In this document: piece by piece, positions 12,165 through 64,000 of the stretch
Layout: every line of letters starts with the position of its first letter
Numbering within the stretch: the stretch's first letter is position 1
DNA from: an uncultured Candidatus Saccharibacteria bacterium
GTDB taxonomy: Bacteria > Patescibacteriota > Dojkabacteria > J137
Direction: 5' to 3'
NCBI GenBank assembly: GCA_964607415.1
Contig: CAZSKK010000002.1
Location: forward strand, 73,991-137,990
DNA: 64,000 bases
Translations under genes and position numbers: made by a program
Notes under the pieces: generated by a model
Told to the model about the DNA's origin: nothing
Database searches by the model: none
What the model saw: the letters and a program-made list of their open reading frames with translations, nothing else

Positions 12165-12212
12165 TTAATTTATCGCTAATAGCAAAGAGCTAAAAGCTAA
12201 TCGCTAACATAT

Positions 12213-12638: not shown

Positions 12639-12666
12639 TTAATTTATAAATTTAAAATTTAAAGCA

Positions 12667-13356: not shown

Positions 13357-13379
13357 CAATTTAATTAGTCAAAGAAAGC

Positions 13380-13610
13380 AGGCATTAATTAGTTTAAGTG
13401 TAAGTAGAAAGCAATAGGAATTATTTTTATTCTTTTTACATTAAACCAATTCTCTAAGCCCTACCGAGACCTATCATGTAAGATTCAAGACGAGCTTAAA
13501 CTCGTTACTTGAAGTTACACATTTAAGAGCGTCTCGAAGGAGGTGCTTTTTTTTGTTAAAGGTTATTCTTTTGACTTTTTATCTTTTACATTTAACTTTT
13601 AACACTTAAA
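13380..13610 (+). promoter_or_regulatory. Long rplJ 5' leader (candidate L10-leader autoregulatory element) ending in a T8 tract
   Basis: About 255-nt non-coding gap between rplA and rplJ with local hairpins (ACGAG-CTTAAA-CTCGT) and ...GAAGGAGGTGCTTTTTTTTG just before rplJ. Bacteria commonly carry an L10(L12)4-binding leader at this position. Confidence 0.3.
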
Positions 13611-13613
13611 TAA

Positions 13614-14150
13614 ATGGCCAAATCTAAAGATCAAAAAAAGGAGATGCTTAAAGCCTACGTTGCAAAGCTGAAGGCTTCTAAATGTATAGTTATAGTAACT
13701 CCAAAAAAATTAACTGCAAACGATGTAGTTAAATTCAAAAAAGATATCTTTGAGACTCAATCAAGTTTCAATGTTGTTAAAAATACTGTTTTTAAAATTG
13801 CTCTAAAAGAAGCTGGGCTTCCTGAGGTTGAAAATTTAACCAGTGGTGAACATGCGGTTTTGTTCAGTGGAGATGACTTTGTCTCTGCAATAAAACAGTT
13901 AAAGAAATTTATGAACGATACCAAAGTCGGTGAAGATTATAAAATTTCAGTTGTTTCAGGAATCTTAGACGGAGCAAGCTTAACAAAAGAACAGGTAGTT
14001 GAACTATCTGATCTACCTACATTTGAAGGAAGCCTTTCTCAAATTGTTGGTATTCTTAACATGGCTCTTTCAAGTGTTATTACAGTTACTGAAGATCCAG
14101 TTAGAAGCTACATGAGTATAATTGAGCAAGCATACGCAAATAAACAATAA
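13614..14150 (+). CDS. rplJ: 50S ribosomal protein L10
   Basis: 178 aa. L10 family, immediately upstream of rplL. Confidence 0.9.
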   Translation: MAKSKDQKKEMLKAYVAKLKASKCIVIVTPKKLTANDVVKFKKDIFETQSSFNVVKNTVFKIALKEAGLPEVENLTSGEHAVLFSGDDFVSAIKQLKKFMNDTKVGEDYKISVVSGILDGASLTKEQVVELSDLPTFEGSLSQIVGILNMALSSVITVTEDPVRSYMSIIEQAYANKQ

Positions 14151-14194
14151 AAGTTATTATTACATTTTTAATTATTAATTTTTAATTTATTGAT

Positions 14195-14581
14195 ATGGCA
14201 ACAAAAAAAGTAACAGAGATCGTTGATCTTATTAAAGAACTTTCAGTAGTCGAAGCTTTTGAACTAAAGAAAGCTTTAGAAGAAGAGTTCGGTGTAAGTG
14301 CAGCAGCTCCAGTTGCAATGGCAATGGCTCCAGCAGCAGGCGGTGCAGCTGAACCAGTTGAAGAAAAAACTGAGTTCAATGTTGTTCTTGCAAATGCAGG
14401 TTCAAACAAAATCGGTGTTATTAAAGTAGTTAAGAATGCAACAGGATTAGGTCTAAAAGAAGCTAAAGATCTTGTAGATGGAACTCTTCCAGTTGTTGTA
14501 AAAGAAAATGTCAAGAAAGAAGATGCTGAAACTCTAAAGAAAGAGCTTGAAGAAAACGGAGCAACAGTAGAACTTAAATAA
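14195..14581 (+). CDS. rplL: 50S ribosomal protein L7/L12
   Basis: 128 aa with an Ala/Pro-rich hinge and the conserved C-terminal domain ...[13 protein letters not shown]... Confidence 0.95.
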
Positions 14582-14654
14582 GTTATTGGGGTTGTCCCAT
14601 AAATTGGCTTATCGCTTGTAAAATTGCTTTAAGTTCATTGTATTTGTAACTCAA

Positions 14655-14705
14655 GGCAGGTTTATTATATACTGATATGTTATAATAAACCTGCCTATTT
14701 TTTTA
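14655..14705 (+). terminator. Rho-independent terminator after rplL
   Basis: Perfect 15-bp stem aggcaggtttattat...ataataaacctgcct followed by TATTTTTTTA. Confidence 0.75.
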
Positions 14706-14717
14706 CTTAAAAACATA

Positions 14718-15446
14718 ATGGATCAAATTTGGCAATTATTTTTAGACAGAGGGATTTCAGCTGAGGAATTGGAGATATTAAAGCATTCGCTTCTGCTTCT
14801 TTTAATGTTGCCTTTTGTTTCAACAGTTGTTGGAATAACAAGGCATATAATAGGAATCAGCAACATAAGTATTTATGCACCCATTGTTATAACATTTGCA
14901 CTTTATGAAATAAGTTTCGTAAGTGGACAAAATTATGTTTTTCAAGGTCTAAAATTGGGAACCATTCTGTTTTACACAGTTTTACTAACCTCCGCGCTCC
15001 TTTACTACTTTCTAATAAAGCAACTAAGGATGCACTATATTCCTAAAACAAGCTTAGTAATTACTGGAGTTAGTTTTAGTGTGGCTTTTTTATTATTCTT
15101 TAATGCTTACTTTAATAAAACAGGTTTCTTTAGTATTAATACATTTACACTTATCATGATAATTGCTTTATCCGAAGGGTTTATGTCCATTTTCCCAAAG
15201 AAAAATTTTAAGTATGCATTCATTATCAGTACTGAAACGTTTATAATTTCAGTAATTTGTTATCTTGTAATAACCTTAGAATCCTTCCAGGAAGTTTTAA
15301 AACGATATCCATATATAGTTCTTGTTACGATTTTGATAAACTTATTCGTAGGTAGGTTTACAGGCCTAAGAGTAACAGAATACTGGCGTTTTAAAGACTT
15401 ACTTCTGAAACAAGATGTCGACAATAACAACAATTCTCCAAAATAG
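14718..15446 (+). CDS. Polytopic (about 7TM) membrane protein, first gene of an ATP-grasp/protease module
   Basis: 242 aa, almost entirely hydrophobic helices. Architecture and context match the 7TM partners of alpha-L-glutamate-ligase-like ATP-grasp operons; this is inferred, not confirmed by similarity search. Confidence 0.45.
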   Translation: MDQIWQLFLDRGISAEELEILKHSLLLLLMLPFVSTVVGITRHIIGISNISIYAPIVITFALYEISFVSGQNYVFQGLKLGTILFYTVLLTSALLYYFLIKQLRMHYIPKTSLVITGVSFSVAFLLFFNAYFNKTGFFSINTFTLIMIIALSEGFMSIFPKKNFKYAFIISTETFIISVICYLVITLESFQEVLKRYPYIVLVTILINLFVGRFTGLRVTEYWRFKDLLLKQDVDNNNNSPK

Positions 15447-16851
15447 GAAAAGGGTTTTAGGTAGAAACGAGCGGTATCTAAACTTTATTAGACCTAGCAA
15501 CAAATCCCACGCTATAAAAATTGCTGACGATAAAATCCTTACAAAAAAGATTTTGAAAAAACATAATATCCCAGTAACTAAACAGCTTGGAGTAATAAAG
15601 AATAGAAGAGAATTAGAAAAATTTGATTTTGGATCTCTGCCAAAATCATTTGTAGTAAAACCAGTACGAGGTGTAAGAGGTGGTGGAGTTGAAATTTTTT
15701 ATAATAGAGACAAAGATGGCAATTGGATTAAGTCTGATGGTTCAAGGTTTACAATTGAAGATATAAAATTACTTTGCAGAGACATTCTGGATGGTAAATA
15801 TTCCTTATTCAATGAACCTGACACAGTTCTAATTGAAGAACGAATAAGAGCTCATAAGAATTTTAAATACTATGCATATAAAGGTGCCGCTGACATTAGA
15901 GTGATTGTCTACAATAAAGTCCCTGTAATGTCTTATGTCAGGCTTCCAACAAAAGAATCTCAAGGTAAAGCGAATTTAGATAAAGGGGCAATCGGCGCAG
16001 GAATTGATATGGCCGTTGGTAAAACTACTAACTCTATTATTGGAAAGTCTACAAAAATTGAATATCTACCTGAGTACAAGCTTCCTTTATCTGGTTTGAA
16101 AATTCCTTATTGGGATAGAATTTTAAGATATGCTGCAGAAGCAAGTGTGGCAACAGGGCTAGGTTTTGGTGCCATTGATTTTTTAATTGATAAAGAGCTA
16201 GGCCCGTTAATTGTTGAATTAAATGCAAGGCCAGGGCTTTCAATTCAACTCGCAAATGATGATGGGTTAAGATGGAGACTTAAAAAAACTGGAGACATTA
16301 AAGTTAATAAAATTGAAAAAGGTGTACGATTAGCAAAAGATTTATTTGGAGGTGAAATTGAAGAAGAAATTGAAGAAATCTCTGGTAAGCAGGTTATTGG
16401 GCTTATTGAAAACGTTAATATTTACGGTAAAGAAGAGAAATCTGAACTGGTGAAGGCTAAAATTGATACAGGAGCTACAATTTCTTCAATTGATGTGGAA
16501 CTTGCAAAAGAACTTGGTTTTAAAGAAGCAATCGAATATGCTCAAAGTATTTTAAGTGAAATCCCTCAAACATTTTCCTCAATTCACGAAGCAAAAGAGT
16601 ACGCAACTAAACACAACTTAAACGAAAGGCTTGAACAGCATCCAGATATTCAAAAAACTGCTATTGTCAAAGCGAGTAACGGAATTACTTATAGAATTCA
16701 GCTTCCAATGAAGCTTGAAATTTCAGACTTTCAGATAGATACTTATATTAATGTTGCAGATAGAAGCAACTTGCTTTATAAAGTCATTATAGGAAAAAGG
16801 GATCTTAAGAAATTTTTAATTGACCCTGCTAAAAGATTGAAGCTCAAATGA
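15415..16851 (+). CDS. ATP-grasp ligase (alpha-L-glutamate-ligase/RimK-related) fused to a C-terminal retropepsin-like aspartic protease domain
   Basis: 478 aa. N-terminal half carries ATP-grasp motifs (...FVVKPVRGVRGGGV..., ...GAIDFLIDKELGPLIVELNARPGLS...). C-terminal roughly 140 aa contain ...KAKIDTGATISSID..., a DTGA catalytic motif typical of the DUF785/retropepsin-like family that partners RimK. Confidence 0.6.
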   Translation: MSTITTILQNRKRVLGRNERYLNFIRPSNKSHAIKIADDKILTKKILKKHNIPVTKQLGVIKNRRELEKFDFGSLPKSFVVKPVRGVRGGGVEIFYNRDKDGNWIKSDGSRFTIEDIKLLCRDILDGKYSLFNEPDTVLIEERIRAHKNFKYYAYKGAADIRVIVYNKVPVMSYVRLPTKESQGKANLDKGAIGAGIDMAVGKTTNSIIGKSTKIEYLPEYKLPLSGLKIPYWDRILRYAAEASVATGLGFGAIDFLIDKELGPLIVELNARPGLSIQLANDDGLRWRLKKTGDIKVNKIEKGVRLAKDLFGGEIEEEIEEISGKQVIGLIENVNIYGKEEKSELVKAKIDTGATISSIDVELAKELGFKEAIEYAQSILSEIPQTFSSIHEAKEYATKHNLNERLEQHPDIQKTAIVKASNGITYRIQLPMKLEISDFQIDTYINVADRSNLLYKVIIGKRDLKKFLIDPAKRLKLK

Positions 16852-24781: not shown

Positions 24782-27355
24782 TTATTTTTCCATCTCAAAA
24801 CTTACTCTTTTATTTTTTAATACAGCATTAATTCTAAGCAATTCCTTCCTTTTTCTAATAACTTTAGTTTGAAGCAGGAATGTAGCAAGTCCATCTTCAA
24901 GTACCTCAGTTACTTTTCTTCTTATATTTCTCCCTCCATATTCTTTACTATAGCCATGCTCATTTATATATTTAGCTACAGAATCGGATACATTTAACAT
25001 TATGCCTTTCTCTATAAGTCTCAAGATCAGTTCGTTTACAAGATTTTTAGAAATTTGCAAACAATCATCCTTATTCAAACCCCTGAATACATTTATAGAA
25101 TCTATTCTGTTAATAAATTCTGGAGTTAACGAAAATTTTAATTCCTCAAGGATCCTTTCCCTCATCTCATCATATGCAGTCTCTACCTCTGCATCATTCT
25201 TAGATTCTATAGGGATATCAAATCCAAGTTTTGTATCTTTTGAAACTTTCTCCGCACCAATATTCGAAGTCATTATGATAATACAATTTTTAAAGCTTAC
25301 CTTAATCCCTTTAGAATCTGTAAGATTCCCCTCCTCTAAAATTTGCAAAAGTACATTTAGTGTATCAGCATGAGCCTTTTCAATTTCATCAAAAAGAATT
25401 ACAGAATATGGCTTTCTCCTCACAAAAGTCGTTAGCTGGCCGCCTTCCTGATGCCCAACGTATCCAGGAGGAGATCCAATAAGCTTAGAAACGCTGTGCA
25501 TTTCCATAAACTCACTCATATCAACTTGATACAAAAGATTACTGGAGCCAAACAGTTCTTTCGCAAGAGTTTTAGCAAGCTCTGTTTTGCCTACTCCTGT
25601 TGGACCCAGGAACAAAAATGATGCCAGAGGTCTTTTTTCATCGTTTAATCCTAAATGCGATCTTTGTATCGCAAGTGATACGTTTTCTACCACATTATCT
25701 TGCCCCACTATACTCTCTTTAAGCTTTGAGGTTAATGTCTTTAAAGTTTTATCGGATATGTCGCTGGCTGCGATTGGGATTTTTGTCCACTCAACAATAA
25801 TGCTTCGTATCAAATCTGCATCTACTTTCTGAGCAAACTTTGTTTTAGGTTTCTTCTTACCTTCAATTATATCTTCAATCTCATCTACTATAATGTCTTC
25901 TTCCTGTTTAAATTTAGAAGCGATTTCGTAATTAGAGGCATCAAGTGCTTGCTGTTTTTTATTTTGAATTTTAATTAACTTATTTCCTAAAGAGCTTAAT
26001 TCAGGTTCTATTGCTACTTCTCTACCAATTTTTACACTAGCAGCGGCTTCATCAATCAAATCGATTGCTTTATCTGGTAAATACCTATCTTGAATAAATT
26101 TAGACGACAAAACAACAGCATCATCAATTGCTTCCTTACTAATTTTAACCTTATGAAAAGATTCAAATTGAGGAACCAAGTTATATAAAATCTCTTTTGC
26201 ACTTTCCACGTTTATTTCATCAACCATAATGGGCTGAAACCGCCTTTTTAGAGCAGAATCCTCCTCGAAGTACTTGTTGTACTCATCATAGGTTGTAGCG
26301 CCTATTACGGTCAATTCTGAGCTTGTAAGATATGGTTTTAATATGTTTGCAATATCGAGCGAGTCTTTTCCTCCACTGGACCCAGCTCCAACAATCATAT
26401 GTATCTCATCAATAAACAGAATTGTTTGGCCATCTTCGATCACTTCATCTATTACTCCTTTAATCCTTTCCTCCACATCTCCCCTTAATCTTGCACCAGC
26501 TATAATAGATGAAATATCAAGGCTCATTACCCTTTTATTAATAAAAGATGCAGGCAGTTGTTTATTTACAAGCAAATTAACAAAACCTTCAACTATTGCT
26601 GTTTTACCAACACCAGCATCTCCAACTAAAATTGCATTATTCTTTGTTTTCCTTGAAAGTATATGAATTAACCTTTGTATTTCTTTATCGCGACCAGTAA
26701 TATTATGATATTTCCCCTGAGCCGCTATTTCATTCATATCTCTACAGAAATATGGCATCTGCGCTTCCTCTTCTTTGCTTCTAAGAAAATCTTTGCCAAA
26801 TGGAACTCCTAATGATGAAAATGGATCATCTTTAGTTTCAAAATTTGAATCTTTTAATGGATAACTTCCGATTGATATCAATGTTTTTCTTAGTGATTCA
26901 TAATCTATACCTATTTTCTTTACATCTTCTATAAAGTCAATTCCAGGAGTTCTAAACATTGACAGTAAAATATGTTCCGTTCCTACGTAAACATGATTTA
27001 AATCAGAAGCAACAAGGAAACTTTCGTTTAAAACATTTTTGATCTGTATAGAAAATCCTGGTTTAGTTATTACTTCTAAATTTAGTGGATTCAAATCAGA
27101 AGGACTATATTCACTTAGTTTACTTCTTACACGTTTAATTGTTGCTTCTATGTCAATTCCAAGTCTATTAAATACTTCATCAACAACACCATTTTTATCA
27201 AGCATAAGACTTAGGAAAAGATGAATAGGCATGTATTCAAAAGCTTTATTTTCTAAAGCAATCCTGTACCCTTCACCTATTATCCTTCGTGCATTTATGG
27301 TGAATCTATTTACTCCTTTTATATCTTCTTCGTTCAGAGGTATATTGCTATTCAT
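24782..27355 (-). CDS. clpC: Clp/Hsp100 family chaperone ATPase, ClpC-like (two AAA+ modules, short M-domain, LGF-type loop)
   Basis: 857 aa. N-terminal Clp_N repeats, D1 Walker A LVGDAGVGKTAI, D2 Walker A FLGPTGVGKTELAK, sensor ...LFDEIEKAH... A ...KLGFDIP... loop suggests ClpP coupling. ClpB cannot be excluded. Confidence 0.6.
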   Translation of the reverse strand: MNSNIPLNEEDIKGVNRFTINARRIIGEGYRIALENKAFEYMPIHLFLSLMLDKNGVVDEVFNRLGIDIEATIKRVRSKLSEYSPSDLNPLNLEVITKPGFSIQIKNVLNESFLVASDLNHVYVGTEHILLSMFRTPGIDFIEDVKKIGIDYESLRKTLISIGSYPLKDSNFETKDDPFSSLGVPFGKDFLRSKEEEAQMPYFCRDMNEIAAQGKYHNITGRDKEIQRLIHILSRKTKNNAILVGDAGVGKTAIVEGFVNLLVNKQLPASFINKRVMSLDISSIIAGARLRGDVEERIKGVIDEVIEDGQTILFIDEIHMIVGAGSSGGKDSLDIANILKPYLTSSELTVIGATTYDEYNKYFEEDSALKRRFQPIMVDEINVESAKEILYNLVPQFESFHKVKISKEAIDDAVVLSSKFIQDRYLPDKAIDLIDEAAASVKIGREVAIEPELSSLGNKLIKIQNKKQQALDASNYEIASKFKQEEDIIVDEIEDIIEGKKKPKTKFAQKVDADLIRSIIVEWTKIPIAASDISDKTLKTLTSKLKESIVGQDNVVENVSLAIQRSHLGLNDEKRPLASFLFLGPTGVGKTELAKTLAKELFGSSNLLYQVDMSEFMEMHSVSKLIGSPPGYVGHQEGGQLTTFVRRKPYSVILFDEIEKAHADTLNVLLQILEEGNLTDSKGIKVSFKNCIIIMTSNIGAEKVSKDTKLGFDIPIESKNDAEVETAYDEMRERILEELKFSLTPEFINRIDSINVFRGLNKDDCLQISKNLVNELILRLIEKGIMLNVSDSVAKYINEHGYSKEYGGRNIRRKVTEVLEDGLATFLLQTKVIRKRKELLRINAVLKNKRVSFEMEK

Positions 27356-29042: not shown

Positions 29043-29158
29043 AACCGGCGACTACCTATTTTCCCAGGACCCTTCGGACCAAGTATCTTCGGCTCAACTC
29101 TGTTTCACTTCTGAGTTCGAGATGGATCAGGTGGTTCCAGAGCGATACCGTCACCGGA
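29043..29158 (-). rRNA. rrf: 5S ribosomal RNA
   Basis: Minus strand TCCGGTGACGGTATCGCTCTGGAACCACCTGATCCATCTCGAACTCAGAAGTGAAACAGAGTTGAGCCGAAGATACTTGGTCCGAAGGGTCCTGGGAAAATAGGTAGTCGCCGG. Conserved helix I pairing and the CCGAACTCAGAAGTGAAAC core. Confidence 0.85.
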
Positions 29159-29354
29159 CAAATGCGTTTTACGTTTTGCATAAAGCGTTGTATGTATTAG
29201 CGCATTTGTCTGATGACAAGTACAATAAATTTTAAAAGATCACATCACGTTTAACATCATACTTCTAACGTTAAACGCTTATGAACTCTAAAAACTGAAT
29301 AGAAAAAAGTACTCCGAGCATTTGATATAAATACCAAGAAATGATTAAAAAATT

Positions 29355-32395
<3,041 letters not shown>

Positions 32396-32576
32396 ATTTT
32401 TTAATCAATTATATACCCGGTGTACTTTTTCTATTCAGTTGTTAAAGATCAAATACCACTTCCGTGGACGAAATCCGAAAATCGAATTCCGAAATTTATA
32501 TTACTTTATTTTAATACAAGATTTCGAATTTCGAATTTATATTTAGAATTTGCAATTTTGTTTATAAAATTGTTTT

Positions 32577-32649
32577 TGGAGCCTAAGGGATTCGAACCCT
32601 TGACCTCCTCATTGCAAATGAGGCGCTCTACCAACTAAGCTAAGGCCCC
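32577..32649 (-). tRNA. tRNA-Ala (anticodon TGC) in the 16S-23S spacer
   Basis: Minus strand GGGGCCTTAGCTTAGTTGGTAGAGCGCCTCA-TTTGCAA-TGAGGAGGTCAAGGGTTCGAATCCCTTAGGCTCCA, with the G3:U70 identity pair. Confidence 0.85.
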
Positions 32650-32673
32650 AAGCACTCCGTGCTAAGAATAACT

Positions 32674-32750
32674 TGGTAGGCGATCCAAGACTCGAACTTG
32701 GGACCTTTCCCTTATCAGAGGAACGCTCTAACCACCTGAGCTAATCGCCT
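32674..32750 (-). tRNA. tRNA-Ile (anticodon GAT) in the 16S-23S spacer, CCA encoded
   Basis: Minus strand AGGCGATTAGCTCAGGTGGTTAGAGCGTTCCT-CTGATAA-GGGAAAGGTCCCAAGTTCGAGTCTTGGATCGCCTACCA. Confidence 0.85.
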
Positions 32751-32928
32751 GTGATAGCGGTATAGCTCATAGTGCTTAGCTTTTAGCTAGAAACTACTTG
32801 CTATATGCTAGCAGCTAATTAAATCCTTAAAAGTGATAAGAATTCACCGTCTTTTGTTTCAACTTGAATCATGGGTTGGAAATCTGTATCCAAAACGTTA
32901 TTCGTTTTATTTGGAATAAAGCTCCTTA

Positions 32929-34446
<1,518 letters not shown>

Positions 34447-34863
34447 AAACTAAAAAAGTCCGAAGACTAGATTAGCTTGAAAAAATTTGATTATGTTCTT
34501 TTGAAAAAAGAACTAAAACTTTTTTGAGAATATTTAGATCCAAGCGAATTTACAAAAGAATTGTCGGTGATTCTTATCACTGTTAAAGTTTCAATGTGCT
34601 TCCCCTGCTGGTTTTTGACCAAGCAAACAGAACAAAAGATGCTTAAAAATTTAAGCACCTAATAATTCGGAAAATATTTTAGAGGAACCATAATCACTGC
34701 TTCCTGTGGTTAGGATTAGCAATGGACTGGTAAGAATTTTATCAAAGAAAAAAACAATTAGCAAGCAGGAAAAACCAGAATTTTTCAAATAACAATTTAA
34801 AGAATTTTCAAAAGGCTTTGCAGTTACAAATTGAAAATTTTTATAACTGTAAATTGTTAATTT

Positions 34864-42478: not shown

Positions 42479-42552
42479 TACCAAGGGAGGGGATCGAACC
42501 CTCGACCTCAGGTTTATGAATCCTGTGCTCTAGCCAACTGAGCTACCTTGGT
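42479..42552 (-). tRNA. tRNA with CAT anticodon (elongator Met, or Ile2 if lysidinylated)
   Basis: Minus strand ACCAAGGTAGCTCAGTTGGCTAGAGCA-CAGGA-TTCATAA-ACCTG-AGGTC-GAGGGTTCGATCCCCTC-CCTTGGTA. A1:U72 pair, so not an initiator. Confidence 0.7.
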
Positions 42553-42600: not shown

Positions 42601-42863
42601 ATATGCCAAGCATTTTGGCAGTTCGGAACTCTTTCCCTAAAATACCAGATGATTGATATAAAGTGCTTTTGTATTTTAACACGAGACAACACCATGTGTT
42701 GCCGAGAATAAAACTTTTATTTATTTAGAAACGGTCCCACTAACATGCGGGACCGTAGAGACATTATACGGGTTACTGGAAAAATTGTCTACGAGTTATG
42801 CTGGGGAAAGAGTTGAAGTTCAAGTACCAAGCTATTGTTATTTACTTAAACTATTGCTTTATT

Positions 42864-42935
<72 letters not shown>

Positions 42936-42966
42936 ATATTTTGTGCAAACAATGATAACACTTATT

Positions 42967-43486: not shown

Positions 43487-44356
43487 ATGCAGACTTCTCA
43501 AGAACTGATAGAAAATTTCGTACAATACTTGCGAAGAAAAAATAAGTCTCATTCAACTATTATTGCATACAAAAAAGATCTTGAGCAACTCGCAAGTTTA
43601 AATGTCAGAAAAAATCTAACTGAGTACACTGTTGATGATATAAAAAATGGGCTAAATTACCTAAGAACAGACAAGGGACTAACTTTAAAGACTGTTTCAA
43701 GAAAATTAAATAGTATTAGAACTTTTTATAAATATTTAGAAGCTAAGAACTTAATAAAAGATAATCCCAGCAAGAATGTTACTCACCCAAAGTTTCCACT
43801 AAAAAAACAAAGAGTTCTGTCAGAGATGGAGTGTCTTGCGCTTAAGGAAGTAAGCAGAGATAATGCAAGACTTTACGCAATGATTGAACTACTACTACAA
43901 ACCGGAATTAGAATAAGTGAATTATCGAATCTAAATTTGAAAGATGTGCAAAACAAAATTGGTGAACATTACCTTCACGTTGAAAAATATTCAAACAACC
44001 CTGAAAGAAGAGTTCCTTTAAACGATAAAATAAATAAAATCTTAGCTTCTTACATTGATTCTTTACCTAGAAAAACTCAAACTAGCCCACTATTCCCTAC
44101 ACGTAGTGGCAAAAATATGGAAATTAGAAACATTAGGAGCTCAATTGATAGGGCAATAATTAAAGCTAAGGTTAAAAATGCATGTGTAAACGATATTAGA
44201 AATACTTTTATCGTAAGGCAATTGGAAAATGGGATGTCTATTTCAAAATTAGCTGAAATTGTTGGCCACAGAAATATTCTTACAACGCAAAAATATATCC
44301 GTCTTCTTTCAAAAAAATACAAACCTACTGGAATAGATAAAGTGTGCGAGTTATAA
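43487..44356 (+). CDS. Tyrosine site-specific recombinase (XerC/XerD or phage-integrase family)
   Basis: 289 aa. N-terminal SAM-like core-binding domain. The catalytic domain has ...LLQTGIRISELSNLNLKDV... (box I R), ...DIRNTF..., and ...GHRNILTTQKYIRL (catalytic Y). It sits directly beside tRNA genes and tRNA fragments. Confidence 0.8.
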   Translation: MQTSQELIENFVQYLRRKNKSHSTIIAYKKDLEQLASLNVRKNLTEYTVDDIKNGLNYLRTDKGLTLKTVSRKLNSIRTFYKYLEAKNLIKDNPSKNVTHPKFPLKKQRVLSEMECLALKEVSRDNARLYAMIELLLQTGIRISELSNLNLKDVQNKIGEHYLHVEKYSNNPERRVPLNDKINKILASYIDSLPRKTQTSPLFPTRSGKNMEIRNIRSSIDRAIIKAKVKNACVNDIRNTFIVRQLENGMSISKLAEIVGHRNILTTQKYIRLLSKKYKPTGIDKVCEL

Positions 44357-44402: not shown

Positions 44403-44472
44403 TTGCCTTGCCGAAATGCATGGCATGCAGGCAGGTAGCACGGGTTCTTTAAAGAAGTTAGGTATTAAAAAT

Positions 44473-44546
44473 AGACCTGTAGCTCAGTTGGTTAGAGCAC
44501 GGTTCTTATAAAGCCGGGGTCCGTGGTTCGAGTCCACGCAGGTCTA
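44473..44546 (+). tRNA. tRNA-Ile (anticodon TAT; AUA-decoding)
   Basis: AGACCTG-TA-GCTC-AGTTGGTTA-GAGC-A-CGGTT-CTTATAA-AGCCG-GGGTC-CGTGG-TTCGAGT-CCACG-CAGGTCT-A. All stems pair and the anticodon is UAU. Confidence 0.6.
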
Positions 44547-44594
44547 TTTTTAATATCTTTACTTTAGAATTAAAGCTCGGGAACTCATTCGACA

Positions 44595-44650: not shown

Positions 44651-47092
44651 TTAGAATCCAAATGAAGGCATTCCGAAAGGATTTGATTTTTCTTTCTCCT
44701 CTTCTTTTATAAATGTACCTCTTAGCTTAACTTCATTTTCAATAATATTTCTATCCTTGCCGTATTTGAGTCTTGAAATCTGTTTAATTATATCTGAAAG
44801 CTCTGGATTTGGTGATGTAATCATACCAAATGGAGATTGATCATACATTGAAGTAATGGAGAATGGTGGTGTTGGCTTACCATCCACAAGCATTTTTATA
44901 AATGCATTTCTGTTTTCTACTTGAATTAAATCATTTCTCGTAAATGCCCCTTCAAACTCCTTTTCTAAAAATTCTGCATCATCAACCCCAACTCTGAATA
45001 CAGCCTTATTACCAACGTTTCCAAAAATAGCATCTCTAATTTTTGTATCCCCTCCAGTTCTTGTCAGCTGTCCTATAAACTGATGGCCTATCGTTAAAGA
45101 TAATTTGTACTTTCTAGCTTCCGACAAAATAATCATAATTCCATCAGTCAAGAAGTTTTGGAACTCATCTATGTACAAAAAGAACGGTTTTCTTTGACTT
45201 TCAGAAACACTTTCACGGCCAAGACCTGCAACCAGTAACTTACCTATTAAAATCATACCCAATAGATTTGCATTGAAGTCTCCAATTTTACCCTTTGAAA
45301 GCTTAGCCAAAAGAATTTTCCCATCATCCATAATATTTCTGAAATTTACTGTAGAATTTTGTTGAGCCACTATTGGTCTTACATAGGCATTTGACAAGAA
45401 ACTTGCAAGTTTTGAAGTAATGTATGGCGTCATATTCTTAAGTGATGCTTCTCCTCCTGCTTTTTCAGCCTGTTTTTTCCAGAAGTCAATAACTTCCTGG
45501 TCATCACACTTGGAAAGTTTATAAGCTCTATAGCCATCATCTGCAAAAATTTTAGGTATTTCTAGAAGTGTTGAGCCCGATTCTTTATCGGCGGTTAAAA
45601 GTAAGATTCCGTATCTCATATACTGCTCAAAAATAGGACCTCCAGTTTTTTTCAAATCGTATAGTGTATCAAAAATATTTAGCATTTCGTTAATTACAAG
45701 AGTTTTTTCTGCTTCAGTGTTGAATTCGAGCATGTTCAGGCCAATTGGTCTTTCAAGATCCGCTGGGTCAAAAACAACAACATCTTCGACTCTCTCTGGT
45801 GGTATTTGTTCCATTATCCTTTCTACATCAGTACCATGTGGGTCAATATAGGCACACCCATGCCCCATTTTTATATCCCTGATCATCATGCTGCTCATAA
45901 AATATGATTTACCAGAACCTGTCTGCCCAATAATGTACATATGCCTCAACCTATCATCAGGCTTAATAAAGATTTCCTTGGTTTTTCCTCTAAAAATGTT
46001 TCTCCCCATATACATGTAATCCTGTTGATATGCAGTTGTTACAAAATCCGCAGCTGGCATTTTGCTAGATAAAAGCCATTGTATGTGGGGAGTTGTTATT
46101 AGCTTGTTAGGGAAATGAAAAAGTGTCGCAAGCTCCGATGAGTTTAAAATCATAGACTCCCTTGGCAATCTGTACACAAAATCCTTTGTTATTTTCTTTA
46201 ATTTCTTTTTATCGACTTTCTTAAATCTATTGCCCCCTTCTTTTGTAAACTGATCAAAAGTACTAAGAATATTAGAAAGATGAGTGTTTGCTGACCCTTC
46301 CATATCGGAAACCACCACTACGCGCACGTCTGTTTGAAACCCAGATTTGCTTGCTTTCACATCGATCATTTCAAGAGTGTCTTCATTCACCTTGACCTTA
46401 CCCTTGTTATCGGGGTCACTCATCTTTTCTTTTATTTTTCTGATATAGTCTTTTGAATCATTTCGCCAGCTTGACCCTGCCGGGGTTATTACAACCTGAT
46501 ATGCGGCAGCTTCGTTTGATTGAAGCTTACTGAAAGCATCTAAAAGTGTAGCAAGAGGATCTACAGGAAGCTCTTCGTAATTTCTGACCGGTAATCTTGA
46601 TTCTTTATCTAATGTAAGTGCAGCAAAAGCAACAGATGCATCATCAGGGAATAAATTGTACTCTTTTACTCTATTAATTTCTGCCTCAGGATAATTACCA
46701 TTAATTTGCCTATCAACAAGATTCGCAATTTTTTCAGGGCAAACCACAAAAAACCTTATATTATCTTTGAACGCAACAATTTCAAAACTTACGAAAGTTT
46801 GGGCATCTAAATATTTTTGAAGTCTTTTTAATTTCTTCCCGATTCCAGTTAATCCTGTAAACATTTGGTCGGCAGCCTTAATCTCAATTTCATTATCTTG
46901 TGGTAATTTAACTTCAAAGTAAGCAAGGCCCAAAGATTTTTTCAAAGAAGACTTTTCTTTTATATTCTTTAGAAACTCCTTAAAAAGTCTTATTGCTAAA
47001 ATTGATATACCTGCAAGTACGACAACAACAGCTAGGATTGTTATCAAAAAACTTGCTATTGCATTTGTATCTACTGAAGGAGCATCGATCAT
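44651..47092 (-). CDS. Membrane-anchored FtsK/HerA-superfamily ATPase of type-IV-secretion type (VirD4/TraG-like, or a VirB3-VirB4-like fusion)
   Basis: 813 aa. N-terminal TM, Walker A IIGQTGSGKSY followed by IDPHGTD, Walker B FFLYIDEFQNF, then ...EARKYKLSLTIGHQFIGQL...AIFGNVGNKAVFRV..., the DEF/R-K-Y-G/HQ..QL motif series of conjugative coupling/transfer ATPases. Confidence 0.6.
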   Translation of the reverse strand: MIDAPSVDTNAIASFLITILAVVVVLAGISILAIRLFKEFLKNIKEKSSLKKSLGLAYFEVKLPQDNEIEIKAADQMFTGLTGIGKKLKRLQKYLDAQTFVSFEIVAFKDNIRFFVVCPEKIANLVDRQINGNYPEAEINRVKEYNLFPDDASVAFAALTLDKESRLPVRNYEELPVDPLATLLDAFSKLQSNEAAAYQVVITPAGSSWRNDSKDYIRKIKEKMSDPDNKGKVKVNEDTLEMIDVKASKSGFQTDVRVVVVSDMEGSANTHLSNILSTFDQFTKEGGNRFKKVDKKKLKKITKDFVYRLPRESMILNSSELATLFHFPNKLITTPHIQWLLSSKMPAADFVTTAYQQDYMYMGRNIFRGKTKEIFIKPDDRLRHMYIIGQTGSGKSYFMSSMMIRDIKMGHGCAYIDPHGTDVERIMEQIPPERVEDVVVFDPADLERPIGLNMLEFNTEAEKTLVINEMLNIFDTLYDLKKTGGPIFEQYMRYGILLLTADKESGSTLLEIPKIFADDGYRAYKLSKCDDQEVIDFWKKQAEKAGGEASLKNMTPYITSKLASFLSNAYVRPIVAQQNSTVNFRNIMDDGKILLAKLSKGKIGDFNANLLGMILIGKLLVAGLGRESVSESQRKPFFLYIDEFQNFLTDGIMIILSEARKYKLSLTIGHQFIGQLTRTGGDTKIRDAIFGNVGNKAVFRVGVDDAEFLEKEFEGAFTRNDLIQVENRNAFIKMLVDGKPTPPFSITSMYDQSPFGMITSPNPELSDIIKQISRLKYGKDRNIIENEVKLRGTFIKEEEKEKSNPFGMPSFGF

Positions 47093-47140: not shown

Positions 47141-47689
47141 CTAGAGCTTTCCTGCCTTCATTTCATTTAAAAACTTTTCGAATTGAATAGCAAGCCACTT
47201 ATTTGATGCTGTATCTGATTGTTTTTTATTTTGCTCTATAAAGTTTAGGGTCTGGGCAATATCTGTAGGATCAAAATTTTTAGGTTTAAATCCATCGCCA
47301 TAAGGCAAAGGCTTTGGCTTTACTATTACAGGTGCAGGAACAGTGCCTTGCACGGCTTGGGTTTGCTGCTGAGACTGATTTTGCTGAGATTCAATGTTCG
47401 ATTCAGGTTTTTTAATATCAAGGCTATGCTCCAAGGTCGACTCCAAAGATTTTTCAGGAGTAGATTGTGGCATTTGTGGTACAGATTCTATTGATCCAGA
47501 AGAGCTACTACTTACCTTTGTTTGCTCAATTTGATTTTTAACAAAGTTATAAGCAACATCTAAAGGTACAACCTGTCCATTAGGTGCATAAACCAAGGGT
47601 GCTCCATTTTCATCATTGCCAAAATAATTAAACCCGAATTGAGACAGTGTTTTTAGAATTTCTTGTATATTTGGATTTTGCGGATTCAT
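47141..47689 (-). CDS. Hypothetical protein with a low-complexity Ser/Gln/Pro-rich centre
   Basis: 182 aa with no recognisable domain. Sits between smpB and the ATPase. Confidence 0.3.
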   Translation of the reverse strand: MNPQNPNIQEILKTLSQFGFNYFGNDENGAPLVYAPNGQVVPLDVAYNFVKNQIEQTKVSSSSSGSIESVPQMPQSTPEKSLESTLEHSLDIKKPESNIESQQNQSQQQTQAVQGTVPAPVIVKPKPLPYGDGFKPKNFDPTDIAQTLNFIEQNKKQSDTASNKWLAIQFEKFLNEMKAGKL

Positions 47690-48225: not shown

Positions 48226-50712
48226 TTAAAAATCTAATCTGATAACCTTCGTTCCATCTAATACATATATCTTTCTTGAAGCTTCATTAATTACTACTTC
48301 TTCAAGGCTAGAGAACATGTTTTCAGACCCTTTGTAAACAAACTGCTTAACAAATTTCATAGACTTCTGTTCGTTATCTTGAATCTCAAATAATAAGACC
48401 CTTTTATTTTTACCATCAGCAACAACCATAAAATTCTCAGACACATCAAAACTGGTAGCAGAATTCATTGCAGTATAATCTGAGCTAACAAGACCACTAA
48501 AGGTGTCTTGGGTAATAGTATTATCGCCTCCCCCAAGGTATCTTCTAATACCTTTTCCTGAAATCAAAACGTATATTTCGTAAGGTGTTGCAATATCTAT
48601 AGCATTCGCAAGTTCAGGATCTGTTTTCCAATTAGGTGGATTTGTTGCGACATACAGAACACCTCCGCCAACAAACTCATTACCATTCCTATCTCTTTTG
48701 AAAATTTGTTGATGATTTTGATGAATTTCGTAAATTGCTTGGTTGCCTTCAAATACTGAGGCTTCAACAACTTTTCCAATAATTGCCTGAGCCGTACCAT
48801 TAATTCGAGTAAGCGAGTTCGATTGACCTTCTTTAAACCTACCTACTGATGCCGTTTGATCATTATCAAAAACTAGAATATCATTTGAAGGCTCCCTCAC
48901 TAGGAACATTGGTTGGCTTAAGCCTGTAATGTGTTCTTGTGCAGTTGAACCTAAATTTACACCTGTTTTGTATACAACATTTCTGGTTTTATCAGATATG
49001 AATAGGTTACCGTTAGAATATTCTAGATCCGAAAGACTTGCATTAGGAAATACTTTTCCAACATCAACAATTATCTGAGGTTCGGTAATACCATCAACTA
49101 AAAGTAGCTCATCTTTTTCTGTGCCTACCCGTCCGATTATCGTATCTAGCCTATCAGTAAATAAATCTTCTTTCTTTTGAGTTTCAGCACTAGATGCTAG
49201 ATTATTCAAACTTGCAAGAACAAGATTTTTTCTTTGTTCACCTTCATTTTTAGCAGTATCAACTTGTTGAGAAAGACTTTGCAATTGAAGTTCTAAGTTG
49301 GAAACTGCATTTTCAGCTTCATTAACTCTCCTCTTTTCTGCCCTATCACTTTGAGCTTTCCTGATACCAAAAAATAAAACTATAACTAAAATTACGGTTA
49401 CAATAATTAATAATCTTCTATTTCTTTTTAACTTGGAGCCTCGCAAATAGATATCTCTTCTATCACCCGTTCCTACAATTTGGGTCTTAAAAAAAGAGTA
49501 AATCTTGTTTGCTACTAAAGATATTTTGGCAGAAATGATGTTAATAATATGTGCATAAGTTTTCTTGTTATTTTTGAAATGAGCTTTTACTTTTCCATTC
49601 CAAACACCAGAGACCCCGGACGCGGCCTTCTTTGAAAAAATTTCAATTTTACCTGTAGATTCGCGTCCATATACATTATCTTCCAACAACGCTTCATCAT
49701 TTTCATACAAATCTTCCTTTTTGGACATTCTTGGAAGATCATCATCATATTCAAATTCATCATCATCTTCTTCTTCACGGTTTCTGAAGCTTTTGGCTTT
49801 ATCGATAAGGTTAGATGATTTTATTTTTACAGTAGCTTTTAAAGTTCGTAACTTTGAAGTCCATTTGGATTTCAGCGAAATATCCTGAGCATCCTCATCT
49901 ACTTCTAATGCCTCTTCATCTTCAATTACATCTAGTTGTTCTGCATCATTTTTGTCTATTTCAACTGAAGAATGATCAAAACTGTTTGCAATATTTTTTT
50001 CTAAATCATCGTCGTGTTCTATGTCATCGCTTCTTACATCTTCGAGCTCTTGTACAAAAGGCATTTCCCATGACTGCTCTTCATCGCCAATCATTAAAAA
50101 CGCCCATCCGATCTTTGCTTTAATTTCATCCAGCGAGATCAAATTTTTATCATTCATTACTTTTTCAACAAGACTACTTCCGTCTTGCGCCACTTTTGAA
50201 GTTGCCAATGCAACAAGATCTGTTGATTCCAATTCTAGGCTTCCACTTTTCATAAAGCCGCTTTGCGCAGCATCAATCAAAACTTTTGATATTTCAATTG
50301 TTTTTTCACCACGCTTTACGTAAATCTTACTTTCTCCAATTACCAGTGCATACATAATATTTCCTACTATAACGCACACCGCCATTTCTAAATCTAATCC
50401 TTCTTTCAAAATATCTTCCTCTCGAGATAAGACAAAGTCCATTTTAGACTTCATTGACCAAACAGCATTTTCAAGCCTAGCAAGAATCTCGCTTTCCTCT
50501 GAAGAATCATAGTAAGCATTTTGAAGCTCATCAACCATTATTTTAGCAACAGGCTCTACATTTACGTCTTTGGCTGTTGTTTTTAAACGTGTTACAGCAA
50601 AAATGTCCCCAAGTCTTTCATGGATTTCAAGCTCCTTAGGGATATAACCGTAAATGCCAGCCCAGTCATAACCCAGTAATTTTCCAAATGTAAATTCAGT
50701 TCGTAAGTTCAT
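48226..50712 (-). CDS. Large bitopic membrane protein with an N-terminal cytoplasmic domain, acidic linker, TM, coiled coil and a C-terminal beta-propeller-like extracytoplasmic domain
   Basis: 828 aa. Has a DE-rich stretch (...EDEEALEVDEDAQD..., ...EEEDDDEFEYDDD...), the TM LLIIVTVILVIVLFFGI, a coiled coil (...NLELQLQSLSQQVDTAKNEGEQ...), and then beta-rich repeats. Confidence 0.4.
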   Translation of the reverse strand: MNLRTEFTFGKLLGYDWAGIYGYIPKELEIHERLGDIFAVTRLKTTAKDVNVEPVAKIMVDELQNAYYDSSEESEILARLENAVWSMKSKMDFVLSREEDILKEGLDLEMAVCVIVGNIMYALVIGESKIYVKRGEKTIEISKVLIDAAQSGFMKSGSLELESTDLVALATSKVAQDGSSLVEKVMNDKNLISLDEIKAKIGWAFLMIGDEEQSWEMPFVQELEDVRSDDIEHDDDLEKNIANSFDHSSVEIDKNDAEQLDVIEDEEALEVDEDAQDISLKSKWTSKLRTLKATVKIKSSNLIDKAKSFRNREEEDDDEFEYDDDLPRMSKKEDLYENDEALLEDNVYGRESTGKIEIFSKKAASGVSGVWNGKVKAHFKNNKKTYAHIINIISAKISLVANKIYSFFKTQIVGTGDRRDIYLRGSKLKRNRRLLIIVTVILVIVLFFGIRKAQSDRAEKRRVNEAENAVSNLELQLQSLSQQVDTAKNEGEQRKNLVLASLNNLASSAETQKKEDLFTDRLDTIIGRVGTEKDELLLVDGITEPQIIVDVGKVFPNASLSDLEYSNGNLFISDKTRNVVYKTGVNLGSTAQEHITGLSQPMFLVREPSNDILVFDNDQTASVGRFKEGQSNSLTRINGTAQAIIGKVVEASVFEGNQAIYEIHQNHQQIFKRDRNGNEFVGGGVLYVATNPPNWKTDPELANAIDIATPYEIYVLISGKGIRRYLGGGDNTITQDTFSGLVSSDYTAMNSATSFDVSENFMVVADGKNKRVLLFEIQDNEQKSMKFVKQFVYKGSENMFSSLEEVVINEASRKIYVLDGTKVIRLDF

Positions 50713-62405: not shown

Positions 62406-63923
62406 CTAACGCTGAACCAGGTTTCCATTTCTATCATAACTCTGCCCTGCCCATTTGCTGAGTTTATCTTCCACAACAAGCCTTGGCTGGGCGTAAGTTT
62501 TTCGGGACATATCTTTTATTTGATTTTTAAGGCCAAAATTTTCAAACTTTGCTGGCAGCGAAATTGCAGTAAACGGTTTGGTTTGTGTTCCGTCAATAGT
62601 CATTTTTAGAACAATTCTAAATCGCTCAAGGTTTACCAAATCTTCTCCTGTTAAATAAGGTGAATACTCTTTTTCCAATCGATTTGCGTCTTTTGGTCCA
62701 ACAACAAAGTTAATCATTGTTCCAACATTTCCAAAGATTGCATCTTGAATATTTCTATCAAGTTGATCAATATATTGATGTGCTACAACTAAATTTAGAC
62801 CATATTTTCTGGCTTCAGATAGGATTTTTACAAAAGTTTCTGTAGAAAAGTTTTGAAATTCATCAACGTATAAATAAAAATCTCGTCTTTCATTTTCAGG
62901 CATTTTGGCCCGCTGCATTGCATTTGTGTAAAGCCTTGTAATTAACATTCCACCTAAAAGCATGCTATTCTCCTCTCCAATTTTTCCTTGAGATAGATTA
63001 ATCAAAATGATTTTTCCTGAGTTCATTGCTTCCTGCAAATCAACAGTAGATTTAACTTGGCCAATCATATTTCTAATCATTGAAGAGCTTAAAAATCTTC
63101 CCACTTTATTTTGAATTGGCGATAGTGTATCCGAAAGCAATTTTTGATTTTTCGCCATTTCGGCAAATTCAACATTCCAGAATTTTAGTAAAAACGGATC
63201 TTTTACTTGTTTTAATAAAAATCTTCTATAATTCTCGTCAGTTAAAATCCTTTGCACAGCAACTAAAGAAACATTTTGGCAATTTAGCAAAGTTAAAATT
63301 GTTGTAGTTAAAATATATTGAAGCCTTGGTCCCCACGATTCGCCAAAAAGCCTTTTGAAAGCTGTAACAATTCCATCTGCCAGAAGTTCCTTTGACTCAC
63401 CTTCTTTTAAGTCCAGCATGTTTAGTGCTACAGGAAAGTCGGTATCCGATGGATCAATATAAATTACGTCTTTCATTCTGTGTTCTGGAATATAGTTTAG
63501 AAGTTCTTCAACCGCATCCCCATGTGGATCAATAAATGCAAGTCCTTCACCGCTCAAAATATCACCGTAAATCATATTTTTTAACATTACAGATTTTCCA
63601 GCTCCTGTTTTTCCAACAACATACATATGCCTTCGTCTATCTTCTTTTTTAATTCCAAAAGGTGTATGTATGCTTCTAAAATCGGTTACGGCAAAAAGTC
63701 TTGCGTTTTCAGTTGGTAGGTCCAAAGGCATCTCAAGCTTACGGGAGTTTGCCCAATTGATTTTTGGCGTTTGTACAGATTCGTTTGGAAGGTGATAAAT
63801 TGATGCAACTTCTTCAATATTTAAAATTCCTGTTTCAAATTCGTTTAAAAATCTTTCGGAAAATTTGTGCTTTAAATCTAGTTTTTGATTTTGCCTTTGA
63901 CCTTTAATGCTATCTTTAATCAT
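62406..63923 (-). CDS. Second, soluble FtsK/HerA-superfamily type-IV-secretion-type ATPase, paralogous to the C-terminal half of the 44651..47092 protein
   Basis: 505 aa. Walker A VVGKTGAGKSV followed by IDPHGDAV, ...YIDPSD...ALNML..., Walker B FYLYVDEFQNF, and ...EARKYGLNLVVAHQYIDQL...AIFGNVGTMINFVVGP.... Confidence 0.6.
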   Translation of the reverse strand: MIKDSIKGQRQNQKLDLKHKFSERFLNEFETGILNIEEVASIYHLPNESVQTPKINWANSRKLEMPLDLPTENARLFAVTDFRSIHTPFGIKKEDRRRHMYVVGKTGAGKSVMLKNMIYGDILSGEGLAFIDPHGDAVEELLNYIPEHRMKDVIYIDPSDTDFPVALNMLDLKEGESKELLADGIVTAFKRLFGESWGPRLQYILTTTILTLLNCQNVSLVAVQRILTDENYRRFLLKQVKDPFLLKFWNVEFAEMAKNQKLLSDTLSPIQNKVGRFLSSSMIRNMIGQVKSTVDLQEAMNSGKIILINLSQGKIGEENSMLLGGMLITRLYTNAMQRAKMPENERRDFYLYVDEFQNFSTETFVKILSEARKYGLNLVVAHQYIDQLDRNIQDAIFGNVGTMINFVVGPKDANRLEKEYSPYLTGEDLVNLERFRIVLKMTIDGTQTKPFTAISLPAKFENFGLKNQIKDMSRKTYAQPRLVVEDKLSKWAGQSYDRNGNLVQR

Positions 63924-64000
63924 ATTTGATTTTAACTTTGTACTTCTTTGCGAAAACGAATTTAGTTCAACCGCATCAAACTGTTTTAAAGACGCCAGGC

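Follow-up and report, generated by a model that had tools for sequence, protein, structure and literature searches.

RESULTS

Two DUF8128 ATPases on a Patescibacteria chromosome

We analyzed a stretch of 64,000 nucleotides (hereafter the window) from an uncultured Candidatus Saccharibacteria bacterium placed by GTDB in the Dojkabacteria (assembly GCA_964607415.1, contig CAZSKK010000002.1, positions 73,991 to 137,990 of the forward strand), which encodes two type IV secretion-type ATPases, here called A and B (Table 1). The window has a G+C content of ~33% and contains a bacterial rRNA operon (29043-34448) and genes for PolA, FtsH, ClpB, Rho, MreB, PBP2, and SmpB. These housekeeping genes, the rRNA operon, and the Dojkabacteria relatives of A identify it as a piece of a Patescibacteria (candidate phyla radiation) chromosome and exclude a plasmid.

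ATPase A is identical to the database protein P0001, for which the domains PF26449 (DUF8128), PF10412, PF01935, and PF12696 are precomputed and whose closest named relatives are Candidatus Dojkabacteria. The open reading frame (ORF) and translation of the 813-amino-acid (aa) protein agree with the initial annotation, as does its paralogy with B, to which it is 37% identical over 479 aa (BLASTP E 6e-98) with a like order of motifs. The similarity also extends to 30.5% identity over 793 aa, N-terminal region included, when A is aligned with P0121, which is 785 aa long, matches the visible part of B at 97% identity, and carries PF26449/DUF8128. By these alignments, A and B are full-length (~800 aa) paralogues of one family, representing two types. 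Both contain HMYxxGxTGxGKS, IDPHG, LYxDEFQNF, EARKYxL, HQxxxQL, and AIFGNVG in this order, whereas YIDPxD, also initially listed as common to the two, reads VFDPAD in A. Most of the listed motifs are invariant across 43 homologues.

ATPase B had been described as short and soluble, a protein of 505 aa (62406..63923, minus strand), but it is cut by the window edge, because its frame is open to base 64000 and matches the full-length P0121. Upstream of the ATG at 63923, the stop-free frame reads LASLKQFDAVELNSFSQRSTKLKSN-MIKD, and the 25 extra codons match residues ~250-280 of P0121. The gene thus runs past the end of the window and is expected to encode a protein of ~785 aa with its own transmembrane (TM) helix and DUF8128 domain, as in its full-length relatives. 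Nearly all of the B homologues listed (n = 120) are 745-880 aa long and have PF26449/DUF8128, and the few shorter ones mostly come from short contigs or are annotated as partial. An exact-sequence look-up of the 505-aa ORF gave no match, which fits with this ORF not being a real gene product, and a hydropathy scan found one N-terminal hydrophobic helix in B-type and A-type proteins alike. In scans of this kind, it is unsafe to interpret an ORF as a short protein when it reaches the edge of the window.

Table 1. Positions of the two ATPases, their domains, and neighboring features in the window
Feature	Coordinates	Strand	Remark
ATPase A, 813 aa, complete gene	44651..47092	-	ORF and translation
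Single N-terminal TM helix of A, residues ~11-37	46982..47062	-	Hydropathy scan
DUF8128 N-domain of A, residues 38-330, alpha/beta	46103..46981	-	Predicted VirB4-N-domain-like fold
ATPase domain of A, residues ~355-795	44708..46030	-	Pfam TrwB_AAD_bind, TraG-D_C, and DUF87 above cut-off
Walker A of A, GQTGSGKS	45905-45928	-	Invariant motif residues
Walker B of A, D642-E643	45164-45169	-	Invariant motif residues
ATPase B, C-terminal ~531 codons visible	62406..64000	-	Frame open to window edge
Low-complexity protein, 182 aa, ending in a Trp-containing amphipathic helix (…SNKWLAIQFEKFLNEMKAGKL)	47141..47689	-	48 nt upstream of A
Six small secreted proteins, each with a basic loop flanked by two hydrophobic helices	55192..58892	-	Between A and B
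Second ClpB-like double-AAA+ protein, 861 aa	58876-61461	-	Overlaps adjoining pilin-like gene of the array
Protein of 828 aa, no Pfam match	48226-50712	-	Upstream of A
whalefall-1 RNA motif, Rfam RF01762	61873-61927	+	39.6 bits (gathering score 37), E 7e-7
tRNA-Ile, anticodon UAU	44472-44547	+	Between A and Xer-type recombinase
Xer-type tyrosine recombinase	43487-44356	+	Convergent to A

A coupling-protein-like motor behind a VirB4-like N-domain

Members of the family have one TM helix, then DUF8128 (~290 aa, cytoplasmic), then an ATPase of the VirD4/TrwB type, and the combination of PF26449 with a TrwB/TraG P-loop domain is found in A through P0001 and in B through P0121. The AlphaFold2 model of A (pLDDT 88.7) opens with a long N-terminal helix (residues 9-52), which is followed by an alpha/beta domain (~55-325) and then by a P-loop domain containing a helical block (~460-590). 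The ~380-aa N-terminal region with "TM segments" reported for A in the initial annotation proved to be one TM helix followed by the globular ~290-aa domain. The basic stretch KEFLKNIKEKSSLKK directly after the TM helix implies, by the positive-inside rule, that the remainder of A would be cytoplasmic, and a second hydrophobic stretch (606-624) is a buried helix of the ATPase fold. In the model, the helical block follows Walker A and precedes Walker B, at the place that the all-alpha domain takes in TrwB; the superposition on TrwB covers the whole chain. In the 43-homologue alignment, G389, G392, G394, K395, D642, E643, R660/K661, Q671/Q675, and the FGN motif are invariant, and for this reason both ATPases look catalytically competent.

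Both proteins are type IV secretion-type ATPases of the FtsK/HerA superfamily, as first proposed, and both exceed the Pfam thresholds of coupling-protein domains. TrwB_AAD_bind scored 25.0 bits for A and 35.1 bits for B (cut-off 20.5), the B-type match being long and strong (E 9.3e-9), TraG-D_C scored 25.3 and 26.8 bits (cut-off 22), and the generic DUF87 central domain passed for both at 31 bits. The best NCBIfam matches of A and B were TraD/VirD4-type models, and the two proteins lay far below the cut-offs of the full-length equivalog models TraD, TraG, and CD1115. Other branches of the superfamily fared worse. The VirB4 model TIGR00929 gave 13.8 and 14.6 bits against a cut-off of 643, AAA_10 stayed below its cut-off, and CagE_TrbE_VirB had no match; FtsK_SpoIIIE (PF01580) gave 19.0 and 20.8 bits against a cut-off of 24, with no gamma or 4TM domains; and the HerA equivalog NF040819 gave 24 bits against 970, the best fold match of the N-domain being VirB4 and not HerA. 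In sequence searches of the PDB, B matched TrwB at 1e-8 and both proteins matched DotL at ~1e-3, and a profile of the 43-sequence family matched TrwB (3.6e-6), DotL (1.6e-4), and, weakly, HerA proteins. The same profile matched neither VirB4 nor FtsK chains at E <= 1, even though TrwK/VirB4 entries are present in the fold-searched PDB. Identity to the reference motors is 10-15%, making a quick tree unreliable. On the Pfam and PDB sequence matches, we assign the motor to the coupling-protein (VirD4/TraG/TrwB) branch of the FtsK/HerA superfamily.

Fold comparison gave a different picture for the N-domain. In Foldseek searches of the PDB, the best E value for the full-length model of A belonged to full-length TrwK/VirB4 of R388 (8e-14, ~900 aligned columns), with low full-length TM-scores since the domain orientations differ, while the motor domain was matched by Cag-beta (TMt 0.59), DotL, and TrwB (0.6-0.7). 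The N-domain modeled in isolation (A residues 38-330, pLDDT 89.5) had TrwK/VirB4 of R388 as all of its top 14 matches (E 8.5e-8 to 2e-5, TMq ~0.5), and the next fold class appeared only from 1e-4. DUF8128 is thus predicted to be a VirB4-N-domain-like module joined to a coupling-protein-like motor.

Among known systems, the type IV coupling proteins (TrwB of R388, VirD4, TraD/TraG, DotL, Cag-beta) are closest to A and B by sequence. The TrwB/VirD4 type shares with them the order of Walker A, DE Walker B, RK, and Q..QL and apparently also the helical insertion between the Walker motifs, and coupling proteins are likewise anchored in the membrane by the N-terminus. They differ from the usual coupling proteins in being chromosomal, apparently vertically inherited, and present as two paralogues, and in having no adjacent relaxase or type IV secretion system (T4SS) core genes in the window. 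To VirB4/TrwK/TraC they are similar in overall length, two-domain plan, and N-domain fold, the VirB4/TrwK N-domain being the best and only consistent PDB match for DUF8128, but they have their own TM helix, they lack a significant match to a VirB4 sequence model, and a bona fide VirB4 coexists with them in related genomes. The initial view that neither protein can be assigned cleanly was true; it had blamed the DEF-type Walker B, which is not diagnostic, whereas A and B resist a clean VirB4 or VirD4 label because a VirB4-like N-domain is joined to a coupling-protein-like motor.

The initial annotation had further suggested a division of labor in which the long protein is a VirB4-like energizer and the short, soluble one a VirD4-like coupling protein. 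The ~800-aa two-domain plan, the VirB4-like N-domain fold, and the TrwK match at the top of the full-length Foldseek search would agree with such a role for A. However, the short protein is an artifact of the window edge, both proteins have one architecture and belong to one family with no significant VirB4 model match, and a separate VirB4 is reported in most Patescibacteria, SEML1_0008 in Southlakia epibionticum for example, so the split between A and B is unsupported and we consider it very improbable. It had also been envisaged that both proteins might fall within a single orthologous group unrelated to secretion; they do form a single family, but this family is related to secretion.

A small gene accompanies A-type ATPases

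Directly upstream of A lies the gene for a 182-aa protein with no Pfam match, which is conserved at this position in other Dojkabacteria. Across the 77 A-type loci whose neighbors could be analyzed, which represent several Patescibacteria lineages, the gene immediately upstream is co-oriented in 64, and a small co-oriented upstream gene is thus a conserved feature of A-type loci. It usually encodes a low-complexity protein of 110-190 aa with a conserved C-terminal helix. Two BLAST clusters take in the upstream genes of 26 loci, and at least three classes of C-terminal motif are found (…GVxHAVKVARxLxDxYxLDxFHD…; …WLKxIPGVNKFFLEQEAKIKTD…; …WLAxxxx[KR]…). Judged by eye, the Trp-containing amphipathic end helix occurs in many Microgenomatia and Dojkabacteria versions, the 182-aa protein included. 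From its position, we infer that this protein is a candidate partner of A.

Gene neighborhoods of A and B

The minus-strand order in the window starts with B, followed by a gap, a 105-aa ORF, a ClpB-like AAA+ protein, six small secreted proteins with two TM helices each, a 444-aa membrane protein, a SpoIID-domain protein, a bPH_2 membrane protein, a 71-aa protein, an 828-aa single-pass protein, SmpB, the 182-aa protein, and A. Past A lie a tRNA-Ile gene, a convergent gene for a Xer-type recombinase, and FtsH. The complete Dojkabacteria genome AP024679.1 has the same run of genes from the pilin-like array to A and the same A-Xer-FtsH order, and parts of the pilin-to-A block are present in other lineages too. 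B is surrounded in AP024679.1 by unrelated housekeeping genes, and the closeness of A and B in the window is therefore not a conserved feature. No VirB4 candidate was found among the window ORFs, all of those of at least 550 aa being accounted for, and the pilin-like genes are the only T4SS-related genes near A or B.

The six pilin-like proteins have 246, 157, 174, 193, 212, and 159 aa. Two of the six, the 246-aa and 159-aa proteins, match the Pfam family PF18895 T4SS_pilin, and the 157-aa and 174-aa proteins are paralogues with 46% mutual identity. The array may encode VirB2-like pilins, and its membership in the system of A and B is uncertain. It resembles the six-gene VirB2-like pilin array reported as essential in S. 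epibionticum, except that the latter adjoins VirB4 (PMC10633639) and the window array has no VirB4 next to it. One explanation would be that A itself acts like VirB4 in pilus biogenesis, extracting and assembling the adjacent pilins, as its VirB4-like N-domain, the six pilin-like genes between A and B, and the preservation of the pilin-SpoIID-membrane protein-A block in a second Dojkabacteria genome (AP024679.1) would suggest. We regard this as quite improbable, since the pilin linkage was seen only in Dojkabacteria loci, the motor is coupling-protein-like, the S. epibionticum array does not adjoin either of the ATPases, and the entries of Table S1 of a recent survey include at least two Dojkabacteria genomes with a VirB4 (PMC12102498).

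In 16 of the 77 neighborhoods, the A-type gene and a Xer-type recombinase gene converge, often with FtsH following the latter, and the synteny SmpB-A-Xer-FtsH is found for A-type genes in several lineages. This raised the idea of an FtsK substitute, a septal DNA pump that would activate the neighboring Xer for chromosome dimer resolution, which membership in the FtsK/HerA superfamily would permit. However, the S. epibionticum genome encodes, in addition to both ATPases, an essential FtsK (SEML1_0096; PMC10633639) of canonical build, in which alpha, motor, and gamma domains are all present, and we rejected the idea on this ground. FtsK_SpoIIIE also remains below threshold in A and B, no gamma domain is present, and Xer and A are convergent instead of co-transcribed, amid unrelated housekeeping genes, leaving a very low probability for an FtsK-like role. 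The A-Xer-FtsH order looks like a conserved housekeeping synteny block more than a functional link.

Several other features of this region are recorded as side observations. The 861-aa ClpB-like protein has hydrophobic helices in its first ~300 residues, where no Clp_N domain is found, and the canonical ClpB of the window is encoded at 24782-27355. In the 828-aa protein, a cytoplasmic N-terminal half is joined through a highly acidic linker and a single TM helix to a large extracellular C-terminal domain; in Dojkabacteria, its gene is conserved in its place upstream of ATPase A, with the bPH_2 membrane protein on one side and SmpB on the other. The whalefall-1 match lies in the ORF-free gap of ~550 nt that separates ATPase B from the 105-aa ORF, and its strand is opposite to that of the neighboring genes. 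The reading of AUA by a tRNA-Ile with a UAU anticodon is uncommon in bacteria; two tRNA genes with CAU anticodons are located at 42479-42552 and 42863-42936.

Relatives on plasmids of Bacillus and haloarchaea

A tblastn search of plasmids matched 311 records, and the family is also present on actinobacterial plasmids. Bacillus plasmids of 27 kb encode an 885-aa "DUF87" protein that aligns with residues 98-783 of A at 25% identity (E 2e-37), so that the homology of WP_345805471.1 (NZ_CP154917.1, "DUF87 domain-containing protein") begins in the N-domain and continues to the end of the motor. Its gene opens a conjugation operon, with a Replic_Relax relaxase directly after it and, further along, a bona fide VirB4 (AAA_10, E 8e-116), a large VirB6-like membrane protein, and a lytic transglycosylase/peptidase. 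Because a relaxase adjoins it and the operon has its own VirB4, the Bacillus homologue occupies the coupling-protein position; unlike A and B, it is plasmid-borne, single-copy, and accompanied by a relaxase. The pLS20 system was considered and not equated with this homologue, as the coupling protein of pLS20 is a canonical two-TM VirD4.

Haloarchaeal TraG-like ATPases (e.g., WP_049804888.1 with its upstream 382-aa protein) are ~26% identical to A over 85% of its length. In Natrinema pellirubrum pNATPE01 (11764-15931), the match is split between two adjacent genes, with the N-domain part of A in the 382-aa upstream ORF and the motor part in a 994-aa ATPase that has a long C-terminal extension. 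The cluster contains a pilin gene, and TIR-domain and ComEC genes lie nearby. The spread of the match over two genes suggests that the DUF8128 N-domain may be a separable module.

Distribution of the two types

The DUF8128 profile matched 4,869 cluster representatives, and in every one of the 150 listed the domain begins no more than ~140 residues from the N-terminus. At least 597 loci were found in GTDB species genomes, with matches ranked against A, so that these are A-type loci, and each of the top 80 is closer to A than to B. The record titles of these 80 name, among others, Dojka-, Levy-, Woese-, Davies-, Curtiss-, Roizman-, Uhr-, Falkow-, Moran-, and Paceibacteria. Several loci whose gene content and synteny are typical of Patescibacteria are titled "uncultured Gammaproteobacteria", "Bdellovibrionales", or "Bathyarchaeia archaeon"; they are probably mislabeled or mis-binned, and taxon titles cannot be trusted here. 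A-type proteins thus occur across Patescibacteria lineages, and named relatives of the B-type were traced in Dojkabacteria only, apart from one labeled Doudnabacteria. Both types share a contig in at least three Dojkabacteria assemblies (contigs of 862,240, 1,140,724, and 313,186 bp).

The presence of two paralogues agrees with a published survey of 3,035 Patescibacteria genomes, which counted 5,713 VirD4-type "T4CP homologues" in 2,918 genomes, about two per genome, along with 2,474 VirB4 proteins, a separate VirB4 being found in 2,417 genomes (PMC12102498).

Possible counterparts in Southlakia epibionticum

Transposon sequencing (Tn-seq) of S. epibionticum ML1 provides the only such data set available. 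Its VirB4 lies inside the essential T4SS cluster (PMC10633639, Table S1 and S2), and two further candidates are encoded away from this cluster: SEML1_0142, a 1019-aa "TraM recognition domain-containing protein" with a P-loop domain at 381-800, and SEML1_0293, a 921-aa "T4SS DNA-binding domain-containing protein" with PF10412 at 402-719 (PMC10633639). SEML1_0142 is essential at all three time points, with 114 input insertions falling to 9-11, and so is SEML1_0141, the 139-aa co-oriented gene upstream of it, in which zero insertions were retained; SEML1_0293 is non-essential, with 82 input insertions against 87-120 later (PMC10633639). The t4cp homologue of S. epibionticum has been stated to be dispensable (PMC12102498), which fits SEML1_0293 and not SEML1_0142.

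Like A and B, the two S. epibionticum proteins have similar annotations, are enriched in Patescibacteria, and have an ATPase domain from ~380-400, and SEML1_0142 has its 139-aa upstream gene as A has the 182-aa one. They are longer than A and B, and their membership in the family is suggested by annotation and Pfam-hit patterns only. NCBI names A-type proteins mostly "TraM recognition domain-containing" and B-type proteins "T4SS DNA-binding", "conjugative DNA transfer", or "DUF87". Because of these names, the B-type TrwB_AAD_bind match, and the small gene upstream of the A-type, it is somewhat more likely than not that A is the counterpart of SEML1_0142 and B that of SEML1_0293.

DISCUSSION

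We propose, with a probability of about 65%, that A and B belong to a Patescibacteria-wide group of membrane-anchored ATPases in which a motor of coupling-protein lineage is joined to a VirB4-like N-domain and which feed a T4SS. Building on the sequence family, its architecture and predicted folds, its distribution, and its gene neighborhoods, we suggest that each paralogue would form a membrane-tethered ring ATPase on the cytoplasmic face of the membrane. The VirB4-like N-domain could provide the docking surface for the inner-membrane platform of the T4SS or for VirB4 itself, and ATP hydrolysis would recruit a substrate, protein or DNA, and push it into a chromosomal monoderm-type T4SS channel made of VirB4, VirB3/VirB6-like proteins, and VirB2-like pilins. 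The A-type would act with the small protein encoded just upstream, and the paralogues would be non-redundant, the A-type corresponding to the ATPase essential for epibiotic growth of S. epibionticum and the B-type to the dispensable one. Patescibacteria have almost no relaxases, which makes protein, or DNA handled non-conjugatively, the likelier substrate.

Several observations weigh against this proposal. Canonical coupling proteins have two TM helices and no VirB4-like domain, whereas A and B have one TM helix and the ~290-aa VirB4-like N-domain. No VirB4, VirB3, or relaxase gene was found in the window, either beside the two ATPases or elsewhere, and the neighborhood of B is not conserved in comparison with AP024679.1. 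Wang et al. found no recognizable coupling protein in the T4SS cluster of S. epibionticum, and the pairing of A with SEML1_0142 and of B with SEML1_0293 is drawn from annotation, Pfam patterns, and the upstream gene. Only 148 of the 5,713 T4CP homologue genes of the survey are near virB4, and ~500 more genomes have T4CP homologues than have VirB4 (PMC12102498). This rare linkage and the ~500 extra genomes make a T4SS-independent role possible.

The main rival to a T4SS coupling role is therefore exaptation, in which motors descended from coupling proteins now serve as stand-alone membrane translocases with the small upstream partner, independently of a T4SS, for example in the export or import of DNA or protein or in envelope biogenesis. 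The authors of the survey raised exaptation themselves (PMC12102498), and it would also agree with the scarcity of relaxases, with the housekeeping synteny around A-type genes, and with the finding that one S. epibionticum member is essential although distant from the T4SS cluster (PMC10633639). However, coupling-protein genes are often far from virB4 in ordinary systems (PMC12102498), and the additional genomes without VirB4 may be incomplete assemblies. The Dojkabacteria A-type gene ends a block of pilin-like and envelope genes, and the Bacillus and haloarchaeal plasmid homologues are located in T4SS or conjugation clusters. We consider exaptation unlikely, in any of the roles named.

A and B are ordinary members of a known but uncharacterized family. 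The Pfam DUF8128 and T4CP domains are already known, the family is counted in the published survey, and it is covered by the published Tn-seq screen, but this work treats it only as "T4CP homologues, possibly exapted", and a literature search for "DUF8128" returned nothing. Three points, namely that DUF8128 has a VirB4-like predicted fold, that a conserved small gene precedes the A-type, and that one S. epibionticum ATPase is essential and the other dispensable, are apparently not stated in the survey or the Tn-seq work and are offered as leads. A more speculative reading, which we hold tentatively and with considerable doubt, is that the DUF8128 ATPases represent a third lineage of T4SS motors with a VirB4-type N-domain and a coupling-protein-type motor, originating before or near the split of VirB4 and VirD4, and that two non-redundant chromosomal paralogues became fixed in Patescibacteria. 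If this were true, the epibiotic lifestyle would require one paralogue together with its small upstream partner, and the pair would be either the missing substrate gate of the relaxase-less Patescibacteria T4SS or the bearer of an essential T4SS-independent function.

Patescibacteria depend on host bacteria, and theirs is, to our knowledge, the first T4SS found to be essential to its own carrier bacterium. The family of A and B is the obvious candidate for the substrate-selecting motor of this system. A VirB4-like N-domain, a conserved small upstream partner of the A-type, and the essentiality of one of the two similarly annotated S. epibionticum ATPases together sharpen the question that can be put to Saccharibacteria genetics.

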